Origin: Balanoglossus misakiensis | Lineage: Eukaryota > Animalia > Hemichordata | NCBI GenBank assembly: GCA_040954595.2 | Contig: CM082591.2 | Location: 10,433,309 to 10,497,308 of the forward strand | Reading direction: 5' to 3' | DNA: 64,000 nucleotides | In this document: in pieces, positions 10,970 to 39,494 of the stretch | Layout of the letters: each line of letters begins with the position of its first letter | Position numbering within the stretch: position 1 is the first letter of the stretch | Notes under the pieces: model-generated | What the model saw: only the letters and a program-made list of their open reading frames with translations | The model's database searches: none | Told to the model about the DNA's origin: nothing | Position numbers and translations under genes: made by a program

Positions 10970-11112
10970 TAGCCAATCAGTACATCTGAATTTTGGGGTC
11001 AGGGGTTACGAAGTGGCGGTACTTCTATGCATGATATGTACGTAGAACGCGACCCAGCCAATCAAGTGACCTACGCTCTCATAAATTACATGGTCATACC
11101 AAAGTGGGCGGT
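10970..11112 (+). promoter_or_regulatory. Candidate promoter of the HIRAN gene
   Basis: Two AGCCAATCA CCAAT boxes (about 10971 and 11056) and a GGGCGG box (about 11106) in CpG-rich sequence just inside the left TIR. Confidence 0.4.
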
Positions 11113-11417
11113 CTTATGTCATCAAAGTTTTTCATTGACAACATTTCAACCCAGTTACTCGAAAAATTACTCTGAAATTCACCGATCCTTTCTTACGTAA
11201 GAACAATTTATTTTTGCGTCTTCCGAATAAAATCCTCCCTACGCTGCCCTGTAGTCCCGATCCCATGCCCAGCCGGCCCCTGCCGTGACATGATCGGCGC
11301 GGCGCGAAATTACCTGTCGTCAGAAAAATCTGACACAATGATCTGCCGTCAGCTCAGTCGCTGAGTCACCAGTGTACTACACAGTCACCAGAGAACGCCA
11401 ACGTACGTCAAATCAAA

Positions 11418-11816
11418 ATGCCGAAAGTTATCATTCACGGAGTGAATGCCGTGGGAATGGCTCACTACAGAGGAGATTTGACAGTCGGGGAAATATACTA
11501 TTTGCGCCGCGAGCATGACAATCCTCACGATAGAAATGCCATCGCAATAGTGGATTCGTCGGAGCCCGGGCCGCGGACCCAAATATTTGGCCATTTGAAG
11601 CGTCGCGCCGCACGTTTAATTGCAAGAGTAATCGATGCGGGGCTTGCCTCAAATGGTGTTTATTATTTGAAGCCTAAGGCCCGCGGTTTCTTCTATTCAC
11701 GACGTTGCGGTGTCGTTCAGTGGTGCAACGTAGGGTTTCTTTTGAAGAAAAGTGATGTGGATCGAGCTAGTGAAGTCCTGTTAGGCAACGGATTTAAAGT
11801 TACGTGCTCGGACTAA
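11418..11816 (+). CDS. Stand-alone HIRAN-domain protein (132 aa), intact
   Basis: HIRAN pattern VGMAHY...VGE.YYLRREHDNPHDRNAIAIV...FGHL.R..A..IA.VID. It has an ATG start and TAA stop. Confidence 0.85.
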   Translation: MPKVIIHGVNAVGMAHYRGDLTVGEIYYLRREHDNPHDRNAIAIVDSSEPGPRTQIFGHLKRRAARLIARVIDAGLASNGVYYLKPKARGFFYSRRCGVVQWCNVGFLLKKSDVDRASEVLLGNGFKVTCSD

Positions 11817-12988
11817 TCGTTTTCTTCCATTCAGTTGGAAAACACAACAAAAACGGCCCTTTTAAGGGCCACCAAATCCTCCAGAAAGAGATATGCCGTT
11901 AGGCGTTACACGAGAATCTATTATAATGATTATATTCTTGTCACACGGTCACTCTGTGTGGAGTGACCTGGTTGTCAATGTCATTGTCGTATGTTTTGAT
12001 TGTTTTGTAGATTGCACATAAGGTCGTTGACCTTTGTACCATGCACTCCAGCGTATCAGTTTGAGCACACGAGCAGTTCCTATATTTTTGGTTGCAAATA
12101 CAATTTATCTCACAGTATATTAATTTTAAGGAGCCAATTGTAGAAATCACACTTGTAATATTTCACATATTACATATGATCACCCATTTGTTTTAAATTG
12201 TCATTTAATTGCTAAGTCATTATCATGTTACACATTTCATGTTATTCTCATTCAGTTCTCCAGTGTCACTCACATCTGTTATCAGTCTCACACACAATTA
12301 ATCCATATGAATGCAAGTGTCAACCATGTGTCTTGTCTATTCTGTCAAGTCCACAGTCCTCACCATTGTATTGTACATGTCACAGTGTCATTGTTACTAC
12401 CCCAGTCACATACACCATTTTGTTTGTCCATTTGTAATTTATTGAAGAACAATAATTCAGCCAAAAATTATTTCTAATTAATCATGTTTCACACAATATC
12501 ATTAACAATGTGTTCAATTAAGCTGTATATATTTATAACACTGAGAAGTCTAATGTCATCTTTGTATGGAACTCAATGTTTAATATTAAATAAATATGTA
12601 TTTCTACATTACACTTGTATATATTATCTATTACATTATATATTGGAAATTTCATATTTACACATGACACACATATTTACAATATTTCTGTTAAACTGGA
12701 TTTTGATAATTAAAGGAAATGTAATATTTATGTTTATATATAAATTATTAATATATTAGTATTGTAAATATTACAATATTTCTAACACTAGATTGAATGT
12801 TATTTTCCAAGCTTGAACAGGATTATTATGTATGATATTCATATTTGTCTTTAACCCCTGGGATGTTTAGATTTGTCTATCATGGAATGTGTGCAGAGCT
12901 GACTTTTCTACACTGATAGGGTGTGTAAAATGCCAAAGAACTTATCCAACACTGCAACAGTGGATGATTCTGTAATGTTGTGAAGATT

Positions 12989-15900
12989 CTATTCTATTGT
13001 AGCAATGTACTCCCTTACATCACTTAAAAGTTTAAGTAACCCATCTTTCTTATGTTCTTTTCTTAACTTGATGACAAACTTTTCTTTGTCAAAATTGCTT
13101 GGTACAACAGACAAAAGAGTGTTGATTTCATTTGTAATTTGCAGTTTTGTTTTGTTCTGATCTAATTCAAAGTATTCCCTTTCTGTTGGTGTTACGAAGA
13201 CTGGTAGAGGGGTTGGTCTTTTTGATGGGTATATTCCTGGCAAGAGGTATTCAGTTATCAAATCATGTTGGCGCTGCTTTGCTATGATTGGCAAACTTAA
13301 CAGTTCAAAATCTAATGGTTTGCCACAAACAGACAACAGCTTTCTGCCAAAAGTGGGCTTACAATAACTATTGCGGCGGAGTAGGATACGAAATTCTGTC
13401 AGTTCATTTTTGTATGTTGGGTATGTTCTTTGGCGTTTTTCAACATGGGGAAGTGACAGTGTAGTTGTGACAGCATTCCTCAAAGCCACCAATGTGTCAT
13501 AATTGGCTATAACCCGTTCCCAAGTTTTATAGTTTGGTTCTCCTCCAATCCATTTTTAACTTCTTTGTTATATTCTTCAAGGACAAAATCTGTTCCTTGA
13601 TGAGCTGTCACAGTGGGTGAACCAGACCTTGATATGCTTTCATACCTCTGAAGAATCTGATTAAGGTCATAAGGGTATCTAATCCTGTCAAATTCATCCC
13701 AACATTCGATGACCTGATATTTAGGGTGGTTTCTAGTAAACCATACAGGCATGAATAACCTCCTGCCTGTTCTGATCAAACAGCTGTTGTTACTCCTTAT
13801 ACCTTTCCTGAACAATTTCAACCCTAAACAGTGAGGTATAAGTTGATTCACAATCAACTGAAAGGTGTCATCATTACTGGTGTTAGCAAATGCCCACTCC
13901 AAAAACCTTTGAAATGATATTGACTCAGTATTATCAGTATCTTTGACATAGTTATACACAAGTTCATCAATTATACCATCACAGAATTTAAGGAAATTGT
14001 CAAATGCCTGATGGTGGTCCCCACAGCTTTTGAAGAACATGAGAGATTTCTCTGTCTTGTATCCTTGTGTTTTAGCAAACTCTTCATATAACACATCCCA
14101 ATATAATTCAATCAATGCTTTGAGCATATTCATTTCCTCATGACCCAACCCAGTCCTCAGAAGTACCCAGTCAAATTCCCCTGAACTCTCAGCAATGATT
14201 TTTCTGACCAACCCTGATGGTAATCCATCACAACGAACAATTGTCCACTCCCTTTTACCGTCAGGATTATAATATTTAATCCCTGCATGTCTACCAATTG
14301 ATCTAAGTACTTCCTTAACAGCCTCAATACTACTTGGATTGACAAACACAGGAGCAATCACTTGGATTTGAGGGATATTACATCTCTCTTTTGTGTTTTT
14401 TTCAATGGTGCTGTCACTTTCAAGAGAAGGGAAACTGTTATGGAAAACAAGGCTGCGAGATGTTGATTTTGACTTCTTTTCAACCCTTGTATTTAAGCTA
14501 TCCCCTTTTTCCTGTGCCTTTCTTTCTTTTGCTATCCATGTACCACATTTTTCACATTTTTTCTTTGATTTCAGATTTCTATAATTGCATTGAGGTACAG
14601 GGCAAATTTTATACTCTTCTTGTTCTTTCCTTTTCTCCAATTCATTTTCAATGAAATTAATGTCATCTGTTTTGTTCAATCTTTCAGTTAAATATTTATC
14701 AAATTCTCCATGGTATGCCGATATCATGTCTGTTGTAAGTTCACACAAACTCAAAGCTTCTTCATCACTAGGAACAGGAAAATTACTTGGCTTATAGTTC
14801 TCATCCTCTTGAATAGTTGAAAGGGGATCTAATTGTACACATATTGAATTAGTTAAAATCTCCAATACTTGTTTATTTTGATTACGTGACAGTCTTGTCT
14901 TCATTAATCTTTGCTCATTATCAAAACAATACTCTAACAAACCCTGTGGTGTATTACTCTCTGATTTCACTCCCATTTCTGTTAACATTGAATAAATAGT
15001 ATCATAACTCCCCCCAGGACAAATATGACCAACAATATCAATTACACTCTCACTTTGACAAATTGAATATATAACAGCTTCCACTGCACACACAAAATCA
15101 CTGATATAATTTAGGTTTCTAGCATTATAAATGGACTCAACAGCAAGAAATTTCTTAACTTTTTGTTTTTCGTTTGATTTTTTTGATACTGGCGATTTGT
15201 GGTGAGTAAATCCATTCACAGCAGCCACAACCACAGGATTTCTATTATTAACCAATTCATCTATATTTATATTAATTTGATTTTCAAGACTTCTAGATTG
15301 CTTATTTTGTTGCATCTCCACAGAATGGTCGAAAATAGCCTCACTCTCAAGCTCTGAGATCTTTTTAATTGCATCTATTCTTTTTCTTTGTGTATCAAAC
15401 TTATTTAGATTGGATGTTTTGAGTTCAAGTCTTTCTTTATTTGAACTTTCTATCTCCCTCTTCAGCCTCCTTATTTCCTTATCTTGTTCTTCTATCCTCT
15501 TTATTAAGTCAGCCATTCCACTGCACATGTGTTGAGGTGGATCCTAAGCAAAACACATCAAAGTAACCTTTGGTTAGATCCAAATACAACAGACAGACAG
15601 ACAGACTAGGCCAGATTGACACACAGGCAGAGCAAGAGACGGACAGCAAACATACTGAAAAAAATAGCAACATATTACAGCTACTTATACTATCCCATTT
15701 GATTCTAAATGTTTGCTGAAAGTATAGCTTTTTATAAGTAGAAAATGTGTGTGGGTATAGTAGGTGTGTTTATTTGCTACCGACTGAACAAGATATCAAA
15801 TATTTTTGCACAACACTTTTTACCTGCACATGAATTGCTCTAGTTTACCTGAACACACCTGAGCTATGTGAATGCGACTCACAGGCAGCAATTTACTGGA

Positions 15901-18042
15901 TAACAAAAACCTCTCACTGACTACTGGGTTTGTCCAGCCCAACTTCCTTAGCTTGGCTCAATCCAAAGGGTTACAGTCTAGCAATTGTATGTGAACTAGG
16001 TAATCATTTCAGTGTCAGCATACCTGTAGATTCTGCACTGAAGGTTCATATCCACTACCAGTAACATCAGCAGACTCTTGATGTTCCTATTATATTGAAA
16101 TAAATTCAAAAAGACATTTATACACAAATTATTTCATTTGTGAATTTAAATGGTTAGATTATTAGTTAGATTATTATGTATTCAGATATTTGTACAGATT
16201 TACAATACGTATGTATGTATGTATATATGTATGTATTTTATATGTACATCCTTTGCCATTTAATTATGTATTTCCATATATCGTCCAAGGAAATCATTTA
16301 TGCACTATCCCCACAGTCAGTGTTGGCCTGTAACAGGTGTGTGGAATGACCATGGTTGTAGTGGTGTCAACCTTGTTGGGAAGCCAGGAAAATCAGACCA
16401 TGGTTTTGTCCAACTCTAATTGTTCTCAATTGTTCTCAATGGACCTCTTTACAGGAAAATGGGGTGAAAGTGTTATGAGTTATGTACTTCAATAGGATAT
16501 ATATCTAACCTGTGGCATATTAGCAATCACACATGCTCGGGAAGAGTCTGCACTGCATGTCAATTGATTGCTAGGGGATACATCCACGCTACTGGTAGAA
16601 GGGATACTTCTGATGGACTCATCATTGTCAACACTAGTGCCACCAACTTTCTGTTTCCTTCCAACCTGGGAAAAATAATTGTCAAGTTTAATGTTCGCAT
16701 TACATATACTTCCTATCAAGTTCTCACTAGTCTAGACTAGTCACACGCTACATTGCATCATTGAGAGAGAGAAAACTTCTAACCTCCATCAGTCCACAAC
16801 AAAGTTTTTAAAGCCCCAAACACCTGGCACTTAACCATATTTTTAATCAATAAATTTTTTTAATTTTCTCTTTCATCTGTAGTTGACAAATGACACTATT
16901 TTGACTTTGTGGGGATTTTAATGACCATGTGCACATACCATGATAGTTGTGTACTCTTGCAATGGGCAGTTGAATACACGGGTGCGGCACTTGTTTATTA
17001 TTTAACTTGTACGTATATTCACATGTGCAGCCACAATCAGAAGTTGATTATATGTTTGTGTATACCCACCAGTTAACTCACTTAAATAAACCATTCTAAA
17101 TTTCGAAAATATAATCATGAAATTAATGCAAAAATTTGCAGCTATTGGGGCTTTAAGCACTTAGGGGTGGACTTGGCGCTTTGCTGTAAAATTACCTATG
17201 CATGCTATCACAGGCGTCAGATTCACATTGCTGTGATTGCTTGATTGAACCTGTAAATAAATAAACCTTATTTACAGGTTGAATCAAGCGATCACAGCAG
17301 TGTGACTCCGACGCCTGTGCATGTTATGATAGTGCCAGACAAAGAAGGCGAGAGCGGCTGCTGACAGACTTATTATTTGGCCCGGCCTGAACGAAAATAT
17401 GTGGGACGATTTTAATTGTGTTGTTGGGACGTCGACCTCGGCCGCTCGGTCCCTGGATCTGGAGGGACCGTGTAATTAGGATGTCGGGTGCAGGCGAGAC
17501 TTTCCCTGCTTGTTTCCTACTATCGTAGACCCTTTTTGACAATAACACAGAATGAAAGTTAATGTGTAAGGCAATGAAGGAAACAAACGTACGCAAGATA
17601 AAATCACTGCCTAAGATTGTATCTAGCCATGTTTACATTGTTGACAGGTCATCGGTCAAACACCGAAGGTCAACTTATCGCCCTCACGAGAGAAAAGAAA
17701 CAGTTCTTTTATTTTTCGGATACGTACCTGCACTGTTCGCCCGTGTCCCAGAGTTCCCGCATCACCAAAACGGGTAAATTCCCTCTTCGTCGGGGCTATT
17801 TCGATGCATTTCCTGCAGATTGTTGCGGTGCGGTGTACGCCAAGTCTAGAAAAAATGTTCCGGTACTCCTTTCTTACGTACTTGGCGATTTCTGGTCGTG
17901 TATTTGTCCCCCGGTTCCATTTTTCATGGAACGGGTTTTTACATTGCGGTGTTTTTTGCGTGACAACTAAAATTATTACTGTGATTAAAATAAAAGTGAT
18001 TGCAAACGCTGAAATAAAATAGACAACTTCCCTGGTGTGCAT
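12989..18042 (-). pseudogene. Spliced Academ-like (DUF6589-like) DDE transposase; one frameshift in the large exon, 5' exon disrupted or uncertain
   Basis: Phase-0 GT-AG exons 16665-16510, 16086-16024 and 15543-12989. Motifs FDNEQ, CDGLP, GLGHEEMN, FRKGIRSNN, WFTRNHPKY and GTDFVLEEYNK. One A is missing in a run near 13555 (corrected read EVKKWIGGEP...YDTLVAL). An N-terminal CKNPFH...ICRKC lies in 18042-17656. Confidence 0.78.
17209..17319. mobile_element. 111-bp palindromic MITE with 8-bp TSD
   Basis: About 52-bp inverted arms CACAGGCGTC...TGTAAATAA and TTATTTACA...GACGCCTGTG. Flanks are CATGCTAT and CATGTTAT. Confidence 0.7.
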
Positions 18043-18422
18043 GTTTGCTCAAAGCTAGCTGGTCGAGGGTTCGAAAATCTGTTTGAAAAGTGTCGTCTGC
18101 TCACTGACGATCGGTCGTCAAGGGCGACGTATGACGTCAATCGGGAATGCACAGCGCTGATCGTGAGTTACGTGACAGCTCCAGTATAGTATATTTTACT
18201 TTTGCATTTTCATAATTTTCTGAAGAAGACTGTAATTTTCACAGTTTATTTATTACGATGATGAAAAAATATTGCGAGGCTGCTGTGTTCATCACATGAG
18301 TGCAATGAAATTGCTAATACGATTGGCTCCATTTCTACTGTGTCCATAGAAACGTTCTATAATGAATATTCATTTATTCTAATTAATGTTTCCATATTTG
18401 GCGATCGGGGCGAGTGATATAG

Positions 18423-19919
18423 GTCGCAAGCAGCTTAAGAGAATGCTTGATGGTAACATTACCAAAAAGTTGATCGGTGGTGATACAATTTTGTACAATG
18501 GCAAAGAAGTTGTGGCTGACATAGTTGATCCAATAAAGAATGAAGTCCAGCTAACCACTGGTGAAGTGATTAAGGCTTCTGAGCTTAAATTGAAAGGTAT
18601 GCACTACAAGAAATAATTTGTTTAATTAAATACAATGCAGTCTCATCAGTTGCACATGAGTGAAAAACCTCTGAGGTAATTTTGTAATTACGTAGATATT
18701 ATGTACCTTGGAAAATAGGAGAAAGTTTATTGGAATATTTAAAAAGAATCATGATTGATTTGATTTCGCAATACTATTTCTAGTCAATTACTATGTAGGA
18801 TAATAGTCCACCATATTCTCAGTCATTTCCTAATTCCTGGTGTTTCTTTGACAACTTCAAGCATTGGATGGTGGTTCAGTCTGTTTGTAACTTTTGTAAC
18901 TTTTGAATACTGATAATACATTACCTCCAACATTAATCTTAATGAAGAGACAAACTTTCCTCAATGAGAGAATCAGCAATGGCAAATTATACTTTCTGAA
19001 AATGTAGACTTGCTTAGCAAACTAAGAGCTGTTATCATGTCTCATGTAAGTACATTTGTAATCTTTCCATACAGAAAGCTTAGTGCCTGAAAGTGTGGCT
19101 CAAAAAATGCCCAAGAAACGAAGAAGGCGCCAAGTGTCAACATGTGATGTGAATCAACAATCAAGTCAGGAGGCAAATCACAATTTCCAGGTTCGTTCTG
19201 ATGAGGGATGCATTCCAGTTGACCTACCTTTAGAAGTTTTTATAAATGCCAAAGGTGTGATCATAAGGTGTGGGTGCATTTATGCTGCATATGACATGGT
19301 TGTTGTATGTGTTCAAATGCATACCACTCAAAACGATCCTCAGTGCACATGTTGGCTTATATACAACACAGACATCAAACAGGACTGTATAATCATTTTA
19401 CCTGTTTCATCCCTGTCTAATACTACTTTCACATTAGATCATAGATGTAATTCTAAGAATCTTCTCAGCAAGATTAAATTGTCTGTATCGCAGTCTGTGA
19501 TCAGTGAAAACAGACATCCCTATACAGTGTTGGTAAGGAAACATCAACTTGCTTCCCAGATCCGTGTTGAGGTACAGAGTTGTCTTAGAAGCAAGTCACT
19601 TACAAGGACAGCCAACCTTGGCCTTTGCTTCCAACTTACCGATTTGGCAATCTTGAATCTGAAGGCAGAATGTAACTTTACCAACATTGTCAATTACAAA
19701 AAAAATCCCATCTCGAAATTGGATGATTTGTTAGGCAAATTTTGGGATGTCCTACCACGTGAAAGTTTCTTTAACTATGTGACGAGCCTAACAATTACCA
19801 AGATGGAAAACAACATGATAGCAGTGAAAATAAAGGGGGCAATCTGTCATAACACATACAATCAGGGCAACTACAGAGAGATAACAGCTTTAGATGTTTG
19901 TGGTAGAACTGGGGAATGA
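18423..19919 (+). CDS. 3' exons of a spliced gene of unknown function, disrupted upstream by the CAC-TIR transposon
   Basis: Exon 18423-18596 (GRKQLKRM...KLK, GTATG donor) splices in frame at CCATACAG to 19075-19919 (ESLVPESVAQKMPKKRRRR...). Its acceptor TTTTTCATATAG is rebuilt when the transposon is removed. Confidence 0.6.
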
Positions 19920-21355
19920 AGCTCTTAGAAAGTCGAACTGCTGTGTGTGATAATTGTACATTGTGTATAGCTTTGCTTCTTGCCACCCATAGTTCACTGT
20001 TATGGATTTAGATACCAGAGTAAATTAATTATTAAATTTTATGTTTTGCATGCTAACATGTGCCAAACTGAACTGATAATAGAATATTGAAATTTATCAA
20101 AACAAAAAACAAACAGCATTTCTGCATTGTAGCATGGCCCGGTAGATTCTTCAAGAATATCCTCCATTCCAAGATAAGACTATTAGTAGATTGTGATGTG
20201 ATTATTTGATATACCCACCCATTTTGAAAAAATAATTAAACGCAAAACATACAATTTAATTAAGTTACTCTAGCTTCAGTTGATTTTTATTTTGCCTGAG
20301 TTTTAAGAAGTGTTGCTGTACAAGAAATTAAGTAGATGTGGCCATAGTGATGTATTGCTTAAATGGTAATTTATAATAATTATGTCTAAAATTATTCACC
20401 TGAGAAATGAATGCAATTTTGAAAGTGGGAAATACAGTTGTGCAATTGATGCATTCCTGGAAATTTATGGAATGTTTCAGAAAAGTAAACATTTAAGAGA
20501 ACTAAATTCTGGCTTTCCCAAAGTTCTTAACAAAATGTGTAGGGCACGTCCATCAATATTAAGTAGGGCACAGCTGCGACAGATACGAAAAGAGGTGTGG
20601 GAGTGGCTGGTAGTGCACAGCCCTGTTTCATTTTACCCAATGGGAAGAATTGATGCTAAATGTTTAGAAGCATTCTGTCTATTAAACACACCTCAAAATT
20701 CATCAGTATTGGAATCTAAGTGTTCTGTTTCAATGATCTGTAGTCGCTGCAGATCACCACAAGGGTATGGCTCAAATGTTGGATGTATGAGTTTAACACA
20801 ATCATCAAATGTGAAATGTGGGGGCAACGTACCACAGATTGTTGAGGAAATCTCTAAAGAAAGGGCTGCATGTCTTACTAGAAGAAAATGCAGTTTTTGC
20901 AAAGAAAAATTGCTGTTGGAAAAAGCAGTTGTGGATTTGCCGTCGTTTTACATGTTAGAATTAGGTGTTCTTGATGGCAAAAATCAACAGAAGCCTGCAT
21001 TAAATGTGCCAGAAGAGTGCTCCATTTTTGGCACAAAATATTGTCTGTCAGGAGGAGTACAACTGCGGCCAGGACACTTTTGGGCAATTGTGAACACCAA
21101 GAACAAATTTTATGTTCTTAATGATTTGTGTCCTGTAGTCCAATCATACAACACATTTTCATGGGCAGTTCATGCTGACAAATCTTTGTCTTCTCTGACA
21201 CACACAACTAGTGAACACCATGCTCCTCTACAGGTCTTAGTGTATCAAAAAATCTGTGGCAATGGTAGTGTTGACATCACTTCACAGATAAAAGTGCCAC
21301 CATCGAGAAAATATATTGGTGGTAGTATGGTAGAGAGAAATGTCATATGTGACAT

Positions 21356-22035
21356 TGGAACAATGTCCAATTCTGTTTCTGTCTCAGGTGAGACGTGGGG
21401 CTCTGGAACAATGTCCAATTCTGTTTCTGTCTCAGGTGAGATGTGTGACTTTAGAACAATGTCCAATTCTGTTTCTGTCTCAGGTGAGACGTGTGACTTT
21501 AGAACAATGTCCAATTCTGTTTCTGTCTCAGGTGAGACGTGGGGCTCTGGAACAATGTCCAATTCTGTTTCTGTCTCAGGTGAGACGTGTGACTTTAGAA
21601 CAATGTCCAATTCTGTTTCTGTCTCAGGTGAGACGTGGGGCTCTGGAACAATGTCCAATTCTGTTTCTGTCTCAGGTGAGACGTGTGACTTTAGAACAGG
21701 GTCCAATTCCGTTTCTGTCTCAGGTGAGACGTGGGGCTCTGGAACAATGTCCAATTCTGTTTCTGTCTCAGGTGAGATGTGTGACTTTAGAACAATGTCC
21801 AATTCTGTTTCTGTCTCAGGTGAGATGTGTGACTTTAAAACAATGTCCAATTCTGTTTCTGTCTCAGGTGAGACGTGGGGCTCTGGAACAATGTCCAATT
21901 CTGTTTCTGTCTCAGGTGAGACGTGTGACTTTAGAACAGGGTCCAATTCTGTTTCTGTCTCAGGTGAGACGTGGGGCTCTGGATCAATGTCCAATTCTGT
22001 TTCTGTCTCAGGTGAGACGTGTGACTTGAGAACAG
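21356..22035 (+). repeat. In-frame 48-bp minisatellite, about 14 copies (16-aa unit TMSNSVSVSGE-TWGSG/-TCDFR)
   Basis: Directly visible; two unit variants are interspersed. Confidence 0.95.
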
Positions 22036-22127
22036 GGTCCCATTCTGACACAAATTCAGGGGATGTGGAGGGGGAACTACCAATGAAAAAACAGTGTGAT
22101 AACAATTTCTTCCTAACTAATGGTTAA

Positions 22128-22783
22128 ATAATAACACATGATAGCAAGGGCAATATCACGATTTGAAGCCTGCACGAGGGATGGTGATCTCTGACCATAA
22201 TATTGATGATGCCCGAGCCGCAGGCGAGGGTATCATCAATATTGTGGTCAGAGATCACCAGCCCGAGGGCAGGCTTCAAATCGTGATGTTGCCCTTGCTA
22301 TCATGTGTTATTAATTTTATTACGCCGAACATTTGAACGTACATACAAGGCAGGCATAGAAGAACGTAGACGCGCGTCCATATGTCGTACGTTGCTGAGA
22401 ATGTAAAATGTCTCGATCTCCCAAGAATTATACGATACCTACTTCGAACTTAGATTATTTTGAAAATACTGCACTGTTGGTTGCGATTTTGTTGTATTTA
22501 CTGTCCGTTTGTGGTAAAATATCGTCCAGTTGAACAGGTGTTAAGCCTATGTGTCGCTTTGAAGCCATAGATGCGGGAGTTGACTGATCGTGGAGGAAGC
22601 CATTGAACGACAGTTTGGAACGCGCAGAAGTCGCGCGCAGAACACAAAACAACCCAGCGGGCAATATCAGCGCACGCGACAGGGCTTTATCAACTCTAGC
22701 CATGTTATATCACTTTTTTTTCTATATCACGTGAGCGCGTCTCAGCCAATCACGAATATGGTATAATACGTGAGGTGTAATAA
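22128..22783. mobile_element. Non-autonomous insertion with a terminal hairpin of about 185 bp
   Basis: 22129-22313 folds back on itself (TAATAACACATGATAGCAAGGGCAA...TTGCCCTTGCTATCATGTGTTATTA). TTATTACGCC (about 22317) pairs with GGTGTAATAA (about 22774-22783). It is CpG-rich and interrupts the long ORF. Confidence 0.75.
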
Positions 22784-25700
22784 TATATATTATGAATCCA
22801 CTGGAAACTTCTCATATATCTGCACCTGTGTTTTTGACTTTGTTGGTAGTCATTTTCATATGAAAAAAAAAGGATATACGAAATTTAACCGTTTTCTTGT
22901 AAACTGTGGTATAGATCCCTCTGCTAGCTATAAGGAAGCATCACACAAATGCAGTTGCAAGCGTAAAAAATTAATCAAAACAACAGCAGCAGAGGTAATT
23001 GTATCAACAACCAAAAGTGGTAATACTGTAAAAAAGGCACTGGTTCTGAATGAGTTAAAAAACCTTAACCATTTTAAAGATGCAACCATGGTCACTCCAC
23101 ACCGTGATGCAACTCACCAAATTTTGAAGGCAGGATAAATTCAAATCTTGGGACACACAATCAAATACATTCTTACAGATGATATATATCTGGAGGTGTC
23201 AAGCAGTTTTAGGGTAGCTGGTCTTCTTTCACACTTAAGAAAAGAAGGCTATATATATATAGACAAGTGCCTGCAGACAAATCAGTGCAGTCTGCATGAC
23301 AGCTACACTCAAGATAGAAAATATATAAGATTGCCAGCACTAAATGTCATTCTTACCAAATTTAAGGGGGGTAAAAAGAAAGTAAAACAGTCTTTAAAAA
23401 AGGAACCGGCATCCCTTTTTGAACAAGAAACAATAACTTGTTTGAGTTTCCGGGATAAACTGAATACACCTGTACGCAAAGCAGTTAATGAAGCATCTAA
23501 TGTCACCTTGGAAACTCCATGTACTCTGTCAAACAGAAAAAAAGAACACAAAGGTCAGGCGAAAATTTGGTTTTGTGTTAAATACAAAGCGGAATCTTGC
23601 CAGTCAACTGTCTGATACATTCAGAAAATGTGCTGTACAGCACTTAAACAAGAGCAGAAATAAGTTTGTAAAAGTCTTGTCCCATCTACTGTCCAATCAA
23701 AGAAAGGCAAAGGCCGATACATTTGATGGTTATTTAACGACAGATGATGTTGTGTCATTAATTAGTCAGTCAAGGTTATTGAATCAAAAAGATGTTTTTA
23801 AGCGACTTATTTCAGAACAGGAGTGCACTTCAATTTTTCCTATGTGTGAAGCAGACTGTGTCAACTTGGAGGAAAATTTCTCAGGTGCCAGACTAACAGA
23901 AGAACTAAGAAAATTTATTCCTGGTGTCCTGCCAAGTAGTAGAAAGGTTACTGAATTTAGGGCAAACAGAAAACTAGAATTCCAAGCTGTTTTGTTGCCC
24001 AGACGCACTGCAACAGGATGGTATATTGATCCAGAGCGGTTGTTTCAAGTTCTGCAATTCAAGTATTGTTTCTTGGAACAAGAACAAATTCAGCATTGGA
24101 AAATTTATGGGGATGGGCGAGAGATAGGGGGAGGATGAGTACATTTGTGTCATTAAATTGTTTATCTCATGAGCTTGTATTACACAAATTAAGCTATCAC
24201 AGTACAAAAGAAGTCTGGCCAGTACACATCTTTTATGAGAGTGACTCCAGAGACAATCTGGAAGAGAATCTGGGGTTATCTGGGCCTTTGGATCAATTTG
24301 TTGAGAAAATGACAAGAAAAAACTGTAAGTTTTACTTGTCAGGGGATGAAATGTTCCTGGAAGCTATCCTTGATGACGAAAATTTGAGTCCCACATCCGA
24401 TACAGGGTGGAATATATACGTGGAGGCCAACCGGGAGTCTAAAAAACTCACTTGTCCCAGATCAGGGCTCAGAACTGATCTTTGTCCAGAAATGGCAAGG
24501 TCACATCCTCGGTCTTTGTTGGGGAGTGTGCCTATCGGTAGAGTGGTGCTTTGTACTCTGCATGGTATGGCACGATGTGTGGAGAAATTGCTTCAGTTAG
24601 AAGTAACAAATATTTTGTCTGAGGGTAATAAGGCTGAGCAAAGTGGTGGCAATGCAAACCAATTTGTTCAGGACAAAATAACTGCATTGGAGCAAAGCAT
24701 ATCACTAAGGGGAGTGCGTCATGGAAGTTTTCAGATTTTGTTTAATTCCAAAGGTGAGCCAGAGCCCATCACTTTAAATTGTGACCATGCTCTTGCGATA
24801 ATCAGTCCACCACCAGAAGGAGAAGAGCATTCATTTCCCCATCCTCTTGAAGGTGTTGTCCCTAACAATGTTTATCAGTTATCAATATCACAAACAATTA
24901 AGACATTGTTAGGCCTGGACACTCTATGTACAGAGTTGGAGGTGGTCAAATTGATTTGGTTGAGTTTTTACAACATGACTCAAATAATTAATGAAAACAA
25001 AACACCTGCTCTAAAAACAGGTAGACCAGAAGGCTCCACTAAGTCTGAGGATTATTGTTTTTCTCATACAGCTGATGAAATTTCTAGATATAAGCTCAAT
25101 GCAGAAATATTTTATCAGTTGTTCAAAAGTCGGTATGGCTATCCAGCACTTACTCCATATATGATGATATTGATGTGGTGCCACAATTTATGAAAACCTT
25201 GCCTTTCCCCGTTGGCCGATTTCAGTCCCAGGGAGGGGAACATACCAATTATCAGCATGCCCGTTACTATTTTCAGCATTCGACCAGACATGGGGGAGCA
25301 CAGAAACAAGACCCAATTTTGTCACAGTTATTTCACATGTGGAAGGATCTGAGGTACTACATGAATTCTCTCAAGGAAAAGGGCAATGGGGATGGGAAAA
25401 AGGGAGCAGAGCTGTTTGACAAATTTTGTAGAGAACATTCAGCAGCCATCCTTATTCAAAAAGTATATCGAGGATATTATACTCGAAAGAAATTATCCAC
25501 ACATCCTACTGAAATAGACCCTGTAAAAAATGATAAAAGTGTTAGTAATGGCCTTTTCCATAAGATGACATTTGTGTGTGTTGGTGCTGTGCCAAAATAT
25601 CGCAATAAAAAAATGAGCCAGGAACAAATTAAACAACTTATAGTACATAATGGTGGACGGGTTAGAAAAAACTGCCCTCTGGAAGTACTAAGGGAAGATC

Positions 25701-27314
25701 TACAAAAAAATATATAATATTAGCCCCATGTTCATTAAATCCAAAGGTGAAGGAGGCATCGAGGGCAGTGAAAACTGCAATTAGAAGAAAAGATTATATT
25801 GTTAGGTATGACTTTGTATACGAGTCATTGGATAGTGGTAGATGTCTTCCCCTCAAAAACTATGGAATAACTCTTGAGTATTTGAAAGTAAATTCATATA
25901 AAGTAAATTTGACTGATCAACATTTCAGGAGAGTGCCCAAAATGATGTCTAAAATAAATAAGAAATGGAAGTGCATGCCAGTACCATCAACAAAAAAACA
26001 ACACAAAATTGCCAGAAATGCCGCACATCACTATGCATTCAAAAGAAGAAAGAATATTATGAAGAGAGGAGAGAAAAAATACACCTTCAAAGATACTCAG
26101 GAGTTATTCCAACAGCTGTTTTCAGAATGGAAAGGTCTCTCTACTGAAGAGAAAAACAAACACATCACTGAGTGGGAAAGTGAGAAGTTAAAATTAGGAG
26201 ACAGCAAAGTCTTTGTGCAGGACAATATTAACAAAATGAATATACATAACAGTATTAAATCTCCCATGTACCAGCGTTATGTAAGAGAGCACAATTTACA
26301 CGATTAAATATCTCAGGGGAACTCTTTTAATGCCAATTTTTAGCTTGATATGTTTTTTTGTAAAATCTTTTATTCAGTTTTGTAAAATCTTTAATTTTTA
26401 ATTATTTTATTGCTTTTTGATGTAATTCATTTCTTTAGTAAGGAATTTCGCCATATTTTGTGCTTTATTATTCTTGCTTTGTATACTGTGAAAATGTTTA
26501 CCATATGACAAGTTCAGAAGTTTGAACTTGGTTAGTTCTTGAGACATGTAGATTACATGCTTTCAAAATAAGCTGAACTCTTGAGTGTTGTATGCTTTGT
26601 TGAGGGCCCAACATTTGCCCAAAAGAGTTTCACACTTGTACAAAAGAAAATGCTGTGTTATGTTTTTTTTGTATGAAGTATTGGCATTAAACCAATGTTT
26701 TTAATTCAACACTATTTGAATCCTGTTGATATATTGATGGATGAGGATGAGTTGAATGTGTATGGTAGTGCCAGTGGTCAATATGAAAGAGACTGTTGGC
26801 ATCAACTTGCCCTAGCAATATCAATTTTTCTCTAACCTGTTTTTTACTGACAAGTCCAAGTGCCATCAATTGTATGTCTGCTAGTACATTGTATACATGT
26901 GTGTAAGTAGAGGTGTCTTTGTGTGCAGTGTGCTTGAAAGTCTGGTAAAGATATTGACTATAGTTGTGTGTGCCTGCACAGTTCATATCTTGCAAACATA
27001 TTCCTGCAATAAACTTATCCAGATGGCAGACCATAATCACTACATGTCAAGACAAATGAATCACAATAAAGCATTAGATAGTTGAAGTTTCAACTGCAGT
27101 TGTCATCTTTAGCATCAAAAGTAGTTCCAGGCCTAAAATACTGTGAATATGCTAATTCTAGAAATATTGACTTAAGTGATTTAAATTCAGCTTGGTATCA
27201 GTCAACACCTGATAGGGAAGGGGGTTTATCTTACTTGTGTGTACATTACTTATCTATTTCTGAGATAACAAGGGAGGGTTGGCTGCCTCTACTTTTTAAT
27301 GGAGTGGTAACGTA

Positions 27315-28458
27315 ATGCGAAGAAATCATATAATCAACAACACTGCATCCGTTATGGGAAAAACATGTAAATTCTCCTGGAACATCTTGGTCCTTGCGAC
27401 CATTTATAATATGTACATCAAACGTTTTGCAAAGCATTAATAGAGAGTTACCAAAATTATTTAATATTTTATCTTTAGATTTACGTGGCATGGTAAATTC
27501 GTCACACATGTATGATTCCATTGGCAAGTATTCAGTGGAGTCGTCCACAATAAAGTCATCATTCGATGAGGTCCTTGCATTAAAATCGCCACTTAAAATA
27601 ATATTTACATCTTGATAGTCTGTCAGAATATTTGTAATATATTCTTCTAAGAGGGTTATACCATTTTCATCTGATAAACTACTATATACAGTTGAGTACT
27701 CAGGTGCTATGTAGACGCAACAATATATCACATCCTTAGGGGGTGTGAAATGAAAGAAATCATTATGTAATAACAATACAACAACATCTTGTAATTGACA
27801 ATGCAATTGAGTAATACCAGCAGTAACATTATCACTAGCATAGACAGCAACTCCACCTGCATTCCGTCCTCGTTTACGTATTTTCTTTCTTGGTTTGTTA
27901 AAACAGACATAACCAGGGATACTTGGTGTATCATCAATATCCAACCATGTTTCTACAAAGCCAATAATATTATACGATTTGCATGTAGACAGAAAATCTT
28001 TTAAAGACAGCTTACTTTTGAGGCCTCTTACATTCAGCGTCATTAATTTCAATGCGACTGTTGAGCTGTCACTATTTTTATTCTCTGTATTATAGTAGGT
28101 GTGTACATCAGTGCTATTTCCATCATAATCATCCAGCTTGTTTTCAATATTCGGGCCTTGACCTAACCATTATTTCGACTTATTGACAGGTTTGATATCG
28201 TCATTATTTGCGTCGTATGTATATGCTGTACCTTCAATAATAATTTTATCATAGGAGAGTTTGCAACGTTTATTGTTTTCACGGGCTTGTCTAAGAAATT
28301 TAAATAAGTTCTTTCTGGTATTACGTACACGTGCTGAAAAGTCTTCGGCGATGCGGTACTGTGTCTGTGTTCCCTTCCACTTCGACGTGGTGCGCAGCAC
28401 CTGTTCTTTCTGCTTGAAACTTGCGCACTTGGCTATGATTGGTCGCGGTCTCGATCTG
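27315..28458 (-). mobile_element. Internal fragment of a LINE (CR1/L2-group-like): ORF1 C-terminus plus ORF2 APE endonuclease
   Basis: APE motifs TLNVRGL, VETWL, GGVAVY, GDFNAR, NGR, FT and VVDY (28052-27315). ORF1 tail RPRPIIAK...IAEDFS..VR..RK.L (28458-28170). No RT domain follows. Confidence 0.88.
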
Positions 28459-29058
28459 GAATTTTGTAAACAAACGAGGCTGTGTTTGGAAGCAACCATG
28501 GAAACTTTAGAACTATCCGTCGATCTACAGACTCTAGAGGAAAACTTTCTTATCCTCATAGGCCTATCATGTGTTCTGCGCATCACAACAGAATTTTGTA
28601 AACAAACGAGGCTGTGTTTGGAAGCAACCATGGAAACTTTAGAACTATCCGTCGATCTACAGAGTCTAGTGGAAAACTTTCTTATGCGCATAGACCTATC
28701 ATGTGTTCTGCGCATCACAACAGAATTTTGTAAACAAACGAGGCTGTGTTTGGAAGCATCCATGGAAACTTTAGAACTATCCGTCGATCTACAGAGTCTA
28801 GTGGAAAATTTTCTTATCCTCATAGACCTATCATGTGTTCTGCGCATCACAACAGAATTTTGTAAACAAACGAGGCTGTGTTTGGAAGCAACCATGGAAA
28901 CTTTAGAACTATCCGTCGATCTACAGAGTCTAGTGGAAAACTTTCTTATGCGCATAGACCTATCATGTGTTCTGCGCATCCCAACAGAATTTTGTAAACA
29001 AACGAGGCTGTGTTTGGAAGCAACCATGGAAACTTTAGAACTAACCGTCGATCTACAG
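28459..29058. repeat. 132-bp satellite, about 4.5 monomers left of the BEL insertion
   Basis: Same monomer as 39495-64000, and the register continues across the BEL element. Confidence 0.97.
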
Positions 29059-29307
29059 TGGAGAAAAAAAGAACCACTCCCGTCGCTCTTAATTTGCATT
29101 TTAACTCTTTATTTTGCATGTCAATACTTCATTTGAATATTTGGCAGGCCTAACAGTGTTGTCCCACTGCAGTTAAAGTTTTGGCCCAAGACTTGTAAAT
29201 AGTTTTTGTCTGAATGGGTCTAGGGTTCGCTTTTCGTATTGGTTCGTATCCATGGAATAAACCGTCGGTTACAGAAGACCGTGTCATCCTTGTACTTCTT
29301 CGCAACA
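29059..29307 (+). repeat. BEL/Pao 5' LTR
   Basis: TGGAGAAA...CGCAACA, a direct repeat of 39246-39494, containing AATAAA. Confidence 0.96.
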
Positions 29308-29310
29308 TTT

Positions 29311-29328
29311 TGGTAGCAGAGCATGGTT
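29311..29328 (+). promoter_or_regulatory. Primer-binding site, initiator tRNA-Met-like
   Basis: TGGTAGCAGAGCATGGTT, three bases after the LTR. It differs by one base from the recalled complement of the metazoan tRNA-iMet 3' end. Confidence 0.8.
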
Positions 29329-29338
29329 TGAGGCAAAT

Positions 29339-30546
29339 ATGCACGAAGAACACGGATCCGGTCAGCATTTGGAGGAAGAGGTAAGAGAGGAGCAGCCCGA
29401 AGACATGGAAGCTACCGAAGAGCGAGTTGAAGACCTGAAGCAGAGCAAGTCCAGGGCCAAGGCTGTGTTCACCAGGGTGAGACATCAACTGCTGCGACTA
29501 CTGGAGGAAGAAGACCCGCCCACCAGCTGCCAACAGGTTAGAGACTTTAGTCAAAATTTGGACGCTGCTGTGGAAAACGCGTTGGACATAATGGCCAAGT
29601 TATCTGATGAGTATCAGCGGTTGAAGGATCGACAGAACCGGAGAAAAGTAAGTCAAGAAATGGACAAATTGGAAACTGAGTTTACCGAAGCACAGAACCA
29701 AGTGCAGGACTATATACGAGCTAGTAAGGTGGACTCGTCAAGTACAGGATCAAGAAGTTCCAGCAAGGTGCATATCCGACAGCAAAAGGAAAAGGAAGCC
29801 CGTCAGCAAGTAGAAAAGATCCAAGAAGAGGTCAGACGAAAAGAATCGGAACTCGAGTATATGAAGCAACAAGTGGAAAAAGAGTGCACGTCGCAAAAAG
29901 GAATTGGATGAACAAATGCGTTATGATTATGGGCGTCTTCGAGCAGCTGAACAGGACTTGAAGGAAAGATATCGTGAACTAGAATATGAAATAGACACTG
30001 ACATTGGACTAAAATGTAATCCATCATCGGACATTGAAGCTTGCATCAGCGCGGACATGGGTGAGGTGACTCTTCATGACAATCCACCACAGCAGGAGCC
30101 GAAGGAAAAGTCTTCCCAAAGTAAAGGTATCGTACATTCTACCAATACCACTTCACATCAGGCATCCAATTCGGTTGCAATTTGTCAGGACTTGTGGAAA
30201 CAACTTCAACGTGTATCAATTCCAATATTTTCGGGTGATAAGAGACTTTACGAAAGTTGGAAAGCAGCATTCTATGCATGCATCGACCAAGCCCCTGCAA
30301 CGCCCGAGTACAAGCTCCTTCAACTTCGTCAATATCTGTCTGGGGAAGCTCTCAAGGTGATAGAAAATCTGGGACATTCTGCGACTGCCTACCAAGCTGC
30401 AAAAGATAGGCTAGAACGGAAATATGGTGGGACACGTCGTCAAATCGCGTTATTTTTGGAAGATTTGGACAATGTTAAACCCATACGACCAGGAAATTGT
30501 AAAGACATTGAACGCTTTGCGGACTTGTTGGACATTGCTGTAGTTA
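29339..30546 (+). pseudogene. gag: BEL/Pao gag, 5' part (coiled coil plus DUF1759-like), frameshifted and truncated
   Basis: IPIFSGD...YESWKAAF, KLLQLRQYLSGEA and YQAAKDRLERKYGG. Confidence 0.88.
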
Positions 30547-33500
30547 TAGTCCATGGGCCAGACAGGAATTTGGTATCAGAAAGATGGACAAAGCCTCACA
30601 TGGTTTTTTGGAAAGGCCTATATCTCTAGATTATAAATTGGGGTGATAGCCCTGCCTATCGAGTAGCTTTCTGCATTTTTTCCCTCAAAAACTAATGTAA
30701 GAACCTAAAAATTTCCGACCCAAATTTTGGGGGTAGGGGAACTTTAAATTGCTGTAACTCCAGCAGAACTAAAGCCAGAACAGTCATTTACCACTCAAAT
30801 TGTGTGTTTTTTAGAACTCTACCAAAATAATATATTTTGGTGGTAATTCGTTTTGAATTGAGGTCAATAGAGGTCAAAAGGTCATGAAATTTGGGTCATT
30901 CTGAACATTCGTAGTATGACTATTTCTTGAACGATTTTTTTGAACTTAAGTCTTCAAATGTCATTTACAAGATAAAATACTCTCCCAGAATCTATTTAAA
31001 ACCAATAGAAAACCTTATTATTCATTTATGACCAGAAAAACACAAATAAAGAGAAACGACAGAAAGACATCCAATTTTCCACTCAGATTTAAGGGTAGGG
31101 GAAACTTAAGTTCTTGTAACTCCGGCAAAAATAAACCCAGAACAGTCATCTACCACTCAAATTGTGTGTTTTTAAGAACTCTACCAATATAATATATTTT
31201 GGTGGTAATTCGTTTTGAATTGAGGTCAATAGAGGTCAAAAGGTCATGAAATTTGGGTCATTCTGAACATTTGTAGTATGACTATTTCTTGAACGATTTT
31301 TTTGAACTTATAAGTCTTTAAATGTCATTTAGAAGATAAAATACTCTCCCAGAATCTATTTCAAACCAATAAAAAACCCTATTATTCAATTACGATCAGA
31401 AAAACACAAATACAGAGATACGGAAGAATGGCACAAGACTTCAGACCCTGTTATTGGGGTAGTAGTTGTAACTCCGGCAAAAATAAAGCCAGGAAAGTCA
31501 TCTACCTCTCAAATTGTGTGTTTTTTAGCACTCTAGCGATTGTATATGTATTTGTTGCAATTTTGTTTTGAATTTAGGTCAAAGAGGTCAAAAGATCACA
31601 AGATTTGGGTAATTTCGAAAAATTATGGTACGAACATATCCCGCATTAATTTTTTAAACCCATGTCTTCAAATGTCATTTATGAGATAAAATACTCTACA
31701 CGATTTTTTTTCAGACCAATTGAAGACCTTATTATTCAATTACAATCAGAAAAAAAATTTGTAGAGAAACGGGATAATAACAAACAATTTCCCACGGATT
31801 TTGGGGTAGGTTTGGCCATCTAACAGGTAAGTATACACCCAACTGATCATGCACATATGGTGTTAAGGAGAACGGATGTGCAAATTTGTGAACCTTTGCA
31901 TGCTGCTCATGTGCACTGTACTTGTATGATGATTCCTAACAATACTACGAGAAGGGGCCATTAAGGCATTGTAGCTCTGATTGTGTATTATTGTTGGATA
32001 CCATCCTACAGTGTACAGGCACAGCAGATGACAAGCCAAGCAAAGGTTCAAAAATCTGCTTATTTTTTCCCCTCGACACAATATGAGCATGATCTATTTA
32101 TATTCAGGTCCAGTATAATAAATAAAAAATGGCAAACCCATCTTCTATTCCACACAAGAGGGCTCGACGGGATTGTTTTCTCGACTGTCATGAATCCGAC
32201 CATAAAGCAAGCCTCGTCACTCTACAAGATCACGCCTCCTGGATAACTTTGCTGAATACAGCTAACATACAAAAATACAAACCAATTCAGGACCTCGCCA
32301 TTGGTTTGGGCGAAGGTGAAATTCCTCAGGTGCAGTACCATCGGAAATGCCGAAGTCTCTTTACGATGAAGAAGGCTCTTGAATCTATCCTTTCTAATGA
32401 GTAGTCGTCATCAACTGAGGGAACCAATACACTGGAACGTGAAAAGAGGTCGAGCATACAAGGGTCTCGGTGTATGATCACATTTGCCTATTTTTCTCCA
32501 CCACCAAGTACATGAAGGGAAGTAGGACAAGAGCTCCTTAATAGGGAGTATACAAGGCCTGATATTCAAGCAGGTTCAAGTCATATGGAGGTTGATGAAA
32601 GTCAACATGATCAAGATACTAGTTATGAGGATGTCCTGCAAATTGCTCAAGAAGAGTTATTTTCTTTTATCAGAAATGATTTGTTCACAAACCCTGAGGT
32701 AGTTCCCCTGACTGATCTATCAAACAAGTTAGTTACCAAAATGCTCCAACTTGGTGTTAAACAGGTTAACAATTCCACCAACAAAACTTGCAGCATACGC
32801 TAAATACGGAATTCAAAGGGACAATGATGTAAATGGTAGGGTGCTTGTATATCCGTCTCACTAGATATAGGTACTGTTGACCTGAAGTACAATGCTGTAA
32901 GAAAAGAACTTCTTGCAGCAGAAAAACAATCACATGAAAGTATCATCACCACATCTGCTCTAATCCTGCTTACGCTGGTGAATATCAGGCCTTGTATAGT
33001 CCCTATAACACTTTCTATGATAGTGACCCTCAGCAGCAACCAACTCACGACTGAGAAGTGCACGAATTTTACTGTCATTTTTTCTTGTTGCTGCCTCCCT
33101 TAATGTGTTGTCCGCACGCAATTGCTGACAACGAACTTAGGAGCTCTTGTCCTACTTCCCTTCATGTACTTGGTGGTGGAGCAAAATAGGCAAATATGAT
33201 CGTACACCCGAGACCCTTGTATGCTCGACCTCTTTTCACGTTCCAGTGTATTGGTTCCCTCAGTTGATGACGACTGCTCTTTAGAAAGGATAGATTCAAG
33301 AGCCTTTTTCATCGTAAAGAGACTTCTGCATTTCCGATCGTACTGCACCTGGAATTTCACCTTCGCCTAAACCAATGGCGAGGTCCTGAATTGGTTTGTA
33401 TTTTTGTATGTTAGCTGTATTCAGCAAAGTTATCCAGGAGGCGTGATCTTGTAGAGTGACGAGGCCATTTTTTTATTTATTATACTGGACCTGAATATAA

Positions 33501-35059
33501 AGAGATCATGCTCATATTGTGTTGAGGAAAAAAAATAAGCAGATTTTTGAACCTTTCCTTGGCTTGTCATCTGCTGTGCCTGTACACTGTAGGATGGTAT
33601 CCAACAATAATACACAATCAGAGCTACAATGCTATAATGGCCCCTTCTCGTAGTATTGTTAGGAATCATCATACAAGTACAGTGCACATGAGCAGCATGC
33701 AAAGGTTCACAAATTTGCACATCCGTTCTCCTAAACACCATATGTGCATGATCAGTTGGGTGTATACTTACCTGTTAGATGGCCAAACCTACCCCAAAAT
33801 CCGTGGGAAATTGTTTGTTATTATCCCGTTTCTCTACTAATTTTTTTTCTGATTGTAATTGAATAATAAGGTCTTCAATTGGTCTGAAAAAAAATCGTGT
33901 AGAGTATTTTATCTCATAAATGACATTTGAAGACTTGGGTTTAAAAAATTAATGCGGGAAATGTTCGTACCATAATTTTTCGAAATTACCCAAATCTTGT
34001 GATCTTTTGACCTCTTTGACCTAAATTCAAAACAAAATTGCAACAAATACATATACAATCGCTAGAGTGCTAAAAAACACACAATTTGAGAGGTAGATGA
34101 CTTTTCTGGCTTTATTTTTGCCGGAGTTACAACTACTACCCCAATAACAGGGTCTGAAGTCTTGTGCCATTCTTCCGTATCTCTGTATTTGTGTTTTTCT
34201 GATCGTAATTGAATAATAGGGTTTTTTATTGGTTTGAAATAGATTCTGGGAGAGTATTTTATCTTCTAAATGACATTTAAAGACTTAAGTTAAAAAAAAT
34301 CGTTCAAGAAATAGTCATACTACAAATGTTCAGAATGACCCAAATTTCATGACCTTTTGACCTCTATTGGCCTTAATTCAAAACGAATTACCACCAAAAT
34401 ATATTATATTGGTAGAGTTCTAAAAAACACACAATTTGAGTGGTAGATGACTGTTCTGGGTTTATTTTTGCCGGAGTTACAAGAACTTAAGTTTCCCCTA
34501 CCCTTAAATCTGAGTGGAAAATTGGATGTCTTTCTGTCGTTTCTCTTTATTTGTGTTTTTCTGGTCATAAATGAATAATAAGGTTTTCTATTGGTTTGAA
34601 ATAGATTCTGGGAGAGTATTTTATCTTGTAAATGACATTTAAAGACTTAAGTTCAAAACAATCGTTCAAGAAATAGTCATACTACAAATGTTCAGAATGA
34701 CCCAAATTTCATGACCTTTTGACCTCTATTGACCTCAATTCAAAACGAATTACCACCAAAATATATTATTTTGGTAGAGTTCTAAAAAACACACAATTTG
34801 AGTGGTAAATGACTGTTCTGGCTTTAGTTTTGCTGGAGTTACAGCAATTTAAATTTCCCCTACCCTCAAAATTTGGGTCGGAAATTTTTAGGTTCTTACA
34901 TTAGTTTTTGAGGGAAAAAATGCAGAAAGCTACTCGATAGGCAGGGCTATCACCCCAATTTATAATCTAGAGATATAGGCCTTTCCAAAAATCTATGTGA
35001 GGCTTTTTCCATCTTTCTGATACCAATTTATGAAAAATGGGGTCCTGGCCCATGGACTA
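30547..35059. mobile_element. Palindromic Academ-type DNA transposon derivative (about 2-kb inverted arms)
   Basis: TAGTCCATGGGCCAG...CTGGCCCATGGACTA termini. Arms 30547-32537 and 33137-35059 are near reverse complements, each with subterminal repeats of about 360 bp and a decayed N-terminus (SWITLL...YHRKCRSLFTMKK...CLFC). Confidence 0.82.
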
Positions 35060-38898: not shown

Positions 38899-39234
38899 GT
38901 AAATACAGTTTTACAGACTTTCATGATAAGGACACTGAACTCTTTTTGGGGTAAAACAAAAGAAACACTGCTATTTTAAGATAGAAAAAATTAGAGAAAT
39001 TACGTATTCGTTTGTTTTACTTTGGACCAATGAAAAATACTTGGTAACTTATGAAAATGTATTAACTGAACATTTGAAAACGTATGACATATTGAAAATG
39101 AAATTTGACAGTTTTTGATTTAGATATCAGTAATAGTAAAAAAAAAAAGTTAAAAAAGAAATAATCAGTCAAAAAAAGTATAAAATAGTAAAATTCTCGA
39201 ATGTTTTGAGGAATCAATATTTTCAACATTGATT

Positions 39235-39245
39235 GAGGGGGAGAA
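39235..39245 (+). promoter_or_regulatory. Polypurine tract
   Basis: GAGGGGGAGAA immediately before the 3' LTR. Confidence 0.85.
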
Positions 39246-39494
39246 TGGAGAAAAGAAGAACCACTCCCGTCGCTCTTAATTTGCATTTTAACTCTTTATT
39301 TTGCATGTCAATACTTTATTTGAATATTTGGCAGGCCTAACAGTGTTGTCCCACTGTAGTTAAAGTTTTGGCCCAAGACTTGTAAATAGTTTTTGTCTGA
39401 ATGGGTCTAGGGTTCGCTTTTCGTATTGGTTCGTATCCATGGAATAAACCGTCGGTTACAGAAGACCGTGTCATCATTGTACTTCTTCGCAACA
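39246..39494 (+). repeat. BEL/Pao 3' LTR
   Basis: Direct repeat of 29059-29307. Confidence 0.96.

Follow-up and report, generated by a model that had tools for sequence, protein, structure and literature searches.

The window analysed here, by which we mean the whole stretch of 64,000 nt from the hemichordate Balanoglossus misakiensis, is repeat-rich, animal-like DNA. Between positions 20382 and 26307 of its + strand lie the pieces of a single decayed gene, broken by at least four frameshifts, one in-frame stop and one high-copy insertion. The + strand frames concerned (20370-22127, 22767-23138, 23139-23615, 23464-24138, 24030-25193, 25094-25717 and 25666-26307) follow in order along one family profile and along single intact proteins, and consecutive frames take consecutive parts of that profile, with E-values of 6e-22 to 1e-156 in profile searches, so that their joining into one gene is far beyond chance. 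A sequence-only reading had proposed that these pieces join through frameshifts and one insertion, and both the profile and the intact homologues agree with it. The stop lies at 23136-23138; the reading frame shifts somewhere from about 23410 to 23590 and again around 24130, 25167 and 25680. The insertion is an unstranded palindromic repeat of ~650 bp at 22126..22785 (boundaries approximate), with AATAATA at both ends, AT-rich ends and inverted arms at 22126-22219 and 22223-22316 (94-nt arms, 3-nt loop); its depth, summed over contigs of run X1, reached 25,000, against ~51 on both flanks.

The breaks are real for the sample from which runs X1 and X2 both derive, a single sample that is possibly the window's own source, so that the two runs together count as one sample. 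Contigs assembled from X1 were identical to the window over 22757-23370 and 23397-27353 (0 differences, 0 gaps), and those from X2 differed at one position without a gap over 22914-24031 and at none over 24477-25349. Because these contigs match the window base for base over the regions with frameshifts, the breaks are not artefacts of the window assembly alone.

Other elements surround this copy. A foldback-like element at 5306-9225 shows an apparent TCAATAAGA duplication and has tandem arrays inside it and inverted arms of 156 nt. A second, distinct element of 7.5 kb, at 10904-18416, is bounded by CACTCGCCCC... terminal inverted repeats (TIRs) and a 3-bp ATA duplication. This second element encodes a HIRAN-domain protein (11418-11813, +; E 3e-13) and, with a weak match (E 4e-4), a DUF6589-like protein (12989-15543, -); its contig depth is about three times that of the element described here, and a one-base insertion at 13552 in the run contigs suggests that other copies exist without the frameshift. 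Its two genes were considered as cargo of the element described here and rejected, since the nested element that carries them is separate and has TIRs of its own, and since neither gene matched any of the 22 loci of the metagenome scan introduced below. Downstream, a LINE with an endonuclease and an ORF1-like frame occupies 27318-29108 and 39495-64000; a 132-bp repeat in the ORF1-like frame is expanded to ~186 copies, and both strands have long open frames there. The LINE is interrupted by a BEL/Pao-like retroelement (29059-39495; class judged by translation) with 250-bp direct repeats, which itself holds a long inverted-repeat insertion at 30567-35029.

Read along the + strand, the decayed gene begins with a predicted USP-fold cysteine protease domain (20382..21290), in which the putative catalytic set comprises C at 20439, H at 21075 and an acidic residue at 21123, with four zinc-ribbon cysteines in addition. 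It is followed by an in-frame linker of 14.6 copies of a 48-bp tandem repeat (21348..22047), at the place of which homologues carry unrelated repeats, and, beyond the insertion, by two copies of an alpha/beta module of ~100 aa (22815..23405; family profile E 8e-6 and 2e-15) with the in-frame stop between them. This repeated module matched nothing in Pfam, PHROG or the PDB (12 copies searched), and a resemblance to Bro-N/KilA-N is only putative. The RAG1-fold DDE core, devoid of CxxC, spans three frames at 23464..25357, with its catalytic residues where they had been read from the letters: D at 24112 (YGDG), D at 24345 (GDEMF), the CxLH motif, CTLH, from 24552, and E at 25238 (GGEH). Behind it come an IQ-like motif on a long helix (25412..25495), a BRCT domain split by the frameshift near 25680 (25553..25875) and, with moderate support from the family profile against PDB sequences, an HMG-box-like C-terminal domain with the stop codon (25990..26307). 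Among the window's own pieces Pfam recognised IQ above its cut-off (E 2e-4) and, below it, BRCT_2 (0.0085) and HMG_box_2 (0.71), but neither the protease nor the core, so that the last two assignments rest on homologues and folds.

Homologues confirm that these modules form one chain. A search with the core yielded 45 proteins of 612-2,000 aa, and phmmer with the core found 190 representatives at E up to 0.001; the named sources include Holothuria leucospilota, with eight divergent proteins, and Desmophyllum pertusum, and source annotations call the proteins only hypothetical or BRCT-containing. Intact members of 1,400-2,000 aa have their modules arranged as in the window and show 40-48% core identity. 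Among the 31 proteins of at least 1,200 aa, the core was present in 30, BRCT in 24, IQ in 21, HMG in 20 and a match to the USP profile in 25; USP, core, BRCT and HMG stood together in the window's order in 15/31, P0018 having been dropped from 16 listed, since what matched the USP profile there was a repeat of that protein. As the alignment from which the module profiles were taken comprised 18 family members, this last count is partly circular, yet it is independent of the window. Pfam confirmed BRCT and IQ in the homologues, BRCT_2 with E-values down to 3e-9. Could the long protein nonetheless be an artefact of unrelated neighbouring genes or of assembly errors, given that the window copy is in pieces, most of them weak in Pfam when taken singly? 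The many independent, intact, single-chain homologues, together with single open frames of 1,200-2,100 codons at L001-L004 and L010 of the metagenome scan (22 loci, designated by L-numbers; L013 and L014 are near-identical), refute this. The protease-like, IQ, BRCT-like and HMG-box-like modules of the sequence-only reading thus belong to one protein, not to separate genes.

The architecture is not uniform. In the coral-type copies L013:2035-7300 and L017:3358-8200 there are introns, no USP match was obtained and the protein appears to start at the repeated module, which makes the protease optional. The family tree, drawn with no outgroup, has two well-supported branches. For one pair of loci, L003 and L004, a dN/dS proxy gave 0.08 for the core and ~0.2 for the flanking modules, at a dS near saturation. 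Relatives were found neither in viral contigs (87 candidate stretches) nor in prokaryotic genomes (12 candidates), nor among viral structures at E 0.001.

The AlphaFold model of the first 303 residues of the window protein (pLDDT 90.6) matched USP18 (E 6e-12) and USPL1 (6e-11) in Foldseek, with USP46 and USP12 also among the matches, and gave Z 18.4 in VIA (254 aligned, rmsd 4.8). In alignment A3 the USP catalytic residues are conserved as C in 22/24, H in 24/24 and D in 23/24 rows; the window row has N in place of the catalytic D, followed by D. These data point to a predicted USP-type (C19-like) protease fold with a Cys-His-Asp/Asn set. In one relative, P0058, residues 164-238 form a ubiquitin domain (E 8e-9) immediately ahead of the USP-like domain, a possible self-processing arrangement. 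For the C-terminal modules, residues 659-770 of the model of homologue P0002 (pLDDT 88.8) matched BRCT domains with Z 11.9 (rmsd 2.5), and the HMG region of the family profile matched TFAM (E 1e-4), Nhp6A (4e-4) and HMGB1 (5e-4) among PDB sequences, with modest scores.

The core itself had been read as a RAG1/Transib-superfamily relative, and the fold and the D-D-E series of that proposal stand. Residues 71-588 of the P0002 model aligned with RAG1 at Z 21.3 (424 aligned, rmsd 3.6, ~11% identity), with HzTransib at Z 20.3 (405 aligned, ~12% identity), with BbeRAG1L at 19.2 and with the P element at 12.0; Foldseek agreed with the RAG1-type match (structural identity 9-14%), and the nearest named clusters in the ESM Atlas were RAG1_RNase_H (0.91-0.94). 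Because none of the solved structures in the fold lists is a transposase of the CACTA, Chapaev, Mirage or Plavaka type, the top match to RAG1 denotes the fold only and not the nearest superfamily. The catalytic residues are conserved across the family: the first D in 80/83 sequences, the second D in 115/119, the H of CxxH in 113/118 and the E in 81/82. From the order of the motifs we take them to correspond to RAG1 D600, D708, H795 and E962.

The zinc motif, sequence similarity and CAC termini expected of a Transib/RAG1L member were not found. In the part from the second D to CxxH, none of 96 sequences had CxxC, which occurred in only 1/59 whole D-to-E stretches; H(3-4)H was found just before the E in 1/83 sequences and anywhere in the D-to-E stretch in 19/59. 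Several other histidines are conserved in the core, so a different metal site is possible. By sequence, the RAG1 and HzTransib chains in the PDB gave no match, even when a profile of 55 sequences was run with E allowed to reach 10, and no sequence named RAG1 or Transib appeared among the best 150 of the 190 phmmer matches (from a library without names) or in the profile search; a profile search aimed at bridging to RAG1 and Transib returned 8 matches, all of them family members.

Upstream of the transposase, the C-terminal two thirds of a second gene lie at 19062..19919 (+), recognised by tblastn to L001, L013 and L014 (E 1e-11), L002 (3e-6) and L009 (4e-5). The nested 7.5-kb element is directly upstream of this partner. 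A possible earlier exon at 18419..18616 (+) resembles an L001 segment without significance (35% over 43 aa, E 2.3) and scores below zero against the Tudor profile, and no Tudor exon or other 5' part of the partner was recognisable in the window. In relatives the whole protein has ~400 aa, with an N-terminal Tudor/Agenet-like domain, a second Tudor-like module and unknown domains (alignment A4), and database searches gave 41 homologues. The Agenet/Tudor match of the N-terminal domain is weak (E 0.002-0.005), as is its resemblance to PHF20L1 (E ~0.005), and for the C-terminal part the ESM Atlas gave only BAH/Agenet leads at 0.79, under its reliable range.

The partner adjoins the transposase at 5/22 loci (L001, L002, L009, L013 and L014), four of them independent. 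At the other 17 it was not found; most of these are short, but L004 with 4 kb downstream and L017 with 3.4 kb upstream also have no partner. Its place varies, being upstream in the window, L001 and L002, downstream in L009 and convergent in L013/L014. This variation, and the absence of kelch matches in Pfam and PDB searches, would suit a gene that rides along as a passenger, or as anti-silencing cargo, without ever contacting the transposase, making any parallel with RAG1-RAG2 superficial. Against such a role, the partner is kept across both main branches of the tree (L009, which is P0083, in one and the window in the other), which suggests that it is needed. We regard a passenger role as nearly an even chance; it concerns the partner alone and is compatible with the reading of the element that we favour.

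Elements of this family are ~9-13 kb long. Six ends share CATTAC, a 9-12-base spacer and an A-rich block, so that the element reads CATTAC...GTAATG; the pattern gave 6 matches against 0.7 in shuffles, having been written after the sequences were seen. In L013 a TIR pair at 791 and 10069 encloses both genes, L014 has the same right end with a different flank, and in L017 the left end interrupts a helicase frame. The right TIR of the window lies at 27290..27317 (-), with CATTAC inward and an inner CATTAAAAA block, and its end at 27317 falls exactly where the LINE endonuclease frame breaks. As the base outside the ends is constant, C at 3/3 right and A at 2/2 left ends, the position of the terminus carries an uncertainty of one base. 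No secure left TIR was seen in the window, where candidates at 4258, 9295, 10598 and 16698 were examined, the best of which (9295) agreed at 10/12 bases, about chance level; inverted-repeat and CAC/GTG searches of 9000-20400 against 26300-29300 likewise gave no TIR pair. The check on TIRs and target-site duplications proposed by the sequence-only reading thus gave terminal repeats in relatives and a right end in the window; no duplication of 2-10 bp was seen at L013, the sole locus with both ends and possibly a collapsed contig. At L001:6369-6409 two element ends meet head to tail, together lacking a single base, on a contig whose ends overlap by 69 bases, which fits either an excised circle, resembling a signal joint, or a tandem array.

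These ends bear on whether the gene is instead a domesticated host gene, an invertebrate RAG-like recombinase that is no longer mobile. Purifying selection, the introns of the coral copies and the combination of chromatin-type modules with a reader partner, as in RAG1-RAG2, would all be expected of such a gene. However, decay has broken the window copy, which is nested among other elements, eight divergent named copies come from Holothuria leucospilota alone, and the family has terminal repeats and, at one end, different flanks, and we therefore hold domestication to be very improbable.

Our favoured reading, to which we assign a probability of roughly four in five, is that the window holds a frameshifted copy of a likely cut-and-paste transposon, encoding a giant protein with a core of predicted RAG1/Transib fold without CxxC and with predicted fused USP, BRCT, IQ and HMG modules, beside a second gene that in relatives starts with a Tudor-like domain. 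The one-chain architecture, the conservation of the catalytic residues, the terminal repeats, the linkage of the two genes and the decay of this copy were observed; the folds are predictions. The lineage is real and probably undescribed, and we infer that it works like Transib and RAG yet lacks features that mark membership of either. Judging from fold and conservation, a transposase dimer would bind the symmetric two-part ends (CATTAC, 9-12-bp spacer, A-rich block), and its own HMG box may bend the end DNA, as HMGB1/2, the host proteins on which RAG depends, does in trans (PMC6941560, available part). The D-D-E site would then cut as in RAG and Transib, leaving hairpins on the flanks and free element ends that could insert elsewhere or join head to tail. 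By domain type, the USP domain might remove ubiquitin or SUMO carried by the transposase or by chromatin at the break, the BRCT domain might engage break-repair proteins and the partner might read methylated histones and so steer or shield the element.

A bolder proposal, which we regard as possible though on balance doubtful, is that the family is a superfamily-level branch of RAG1-fold transposons in which a RAG-like machine was built independently, with a zinc-free core, its own HMG bender, a BRCT link to repair, a deubiquitinase, a Tudor reader partner with RAG2-like targeting and signal-joint-like ends. If true, the RAG design would have been reached a second time, by convergence, and nature would offer a test of why zinc, HMGB1 and RAG2 are needed by RAG. 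A family this widespread makes testable, with natural proteins, the contribution of the zinc site and HMGB1, the recruitment of a second subunit and whether a transposase can remove ubiquitin marks at its own breaks, all of them long-standing questions. It is also a large family of elements that appears to have gone unannotated in the genomes of echinoderms and corals.

To our knowledge RAG1 has few relatives, and the zinc site is common to all described ones. In the literature searched, largely the main texts of open publications with Repbase aside, we found no description of this architecture, in keeping with the earlier remark that no described transposase is known to have this domain combination. 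With Transib (subgroups I and II; Tao 2022, PMC9435367) the family shares the core fold, the D-D-E order, the D/C-x-x-H motif, TIRs in two parts of which the inner is an A-rich block, and CA...TG ends. It differs in having no CxxC, ends in CAT rather than CAC, no 5-bp duplication seen in L013, a protein of 1,400-2,000 aa against ~700, an element of ~9-13 kb against 3-4 kb, and the fused USP, IQ, BRCT and HMG modules with a second gene; the 5-bp duplication and the 3-4 kb length of Transib are those given in the available part of Kapitonov and Jurka (PMC1131882).

RAG1 is the best structural match, and as in RAG-like transposons (ProtoRAG, RAGL and AanRAGL, the last treated by Tao 2022) two genes lie between the TIRs, some copies having them convergent and others in tandem, and the second gene encodes a predicted chromatin reader. 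Unlike RAGL, however, the partner is Tudor-based, with no match to kelch or PHD families in Pfam and PDB searches, the HMG box is in cis and the spacers are symmetric; no RING or N-terminal zinc fingers of RAG1 were matched, and a deubiquitinase is predicted where RAG1 has its E3 ligase region.

Many members of the CMCT group (EnSpm/CACTA, Mirage, Chapaev, Plavaka, ESTA and Lanisha), such as EnSpm, have a second gene. The group has 5'-CA...TG-3' termini, like the family described here, and ESTA also resembles RAG1 by profile comparison (PMC12730594, available part). The element might accordingly be a highly diverged member of one of these lineages or of Transib, perhaps already in Repbase, with the zinc motif secondarily lost: the fold is shared, PlavakaB begins CATCA (same source), and TIR and TSD are labile within Transib according to the accessible part of a preprint on Nozomi (bioRxiv 2026.08.26.747230). 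Yet C(2)C and H(3-4)H, placed after the second D and ahead of the E, are described, in the available part of PMC12730594, as common to all CMCT lineages and Transib, which sets the family apart as far as those published descriptions go (CxxC 1/59, positional H(3-4)H 1/83), and the sequence searches described above brought up neither RAG1 nor Transib by name. We therefore think membership of a named lineage rather unlikely.

In Zisupton and other protease-bearing DNA transposons the transposase comes with a cysteine protease that belongs to the ubiquitin/SUMO system, in some with an HMG box, but these elements use Ulp1/C48 or OTU proteases and a different core. The protease of the present family has instead a predicted USP fold, C48 and OTU being the accessory domains named in the available part of PMC5751038, and it is joined to a core of the RAG1 type.
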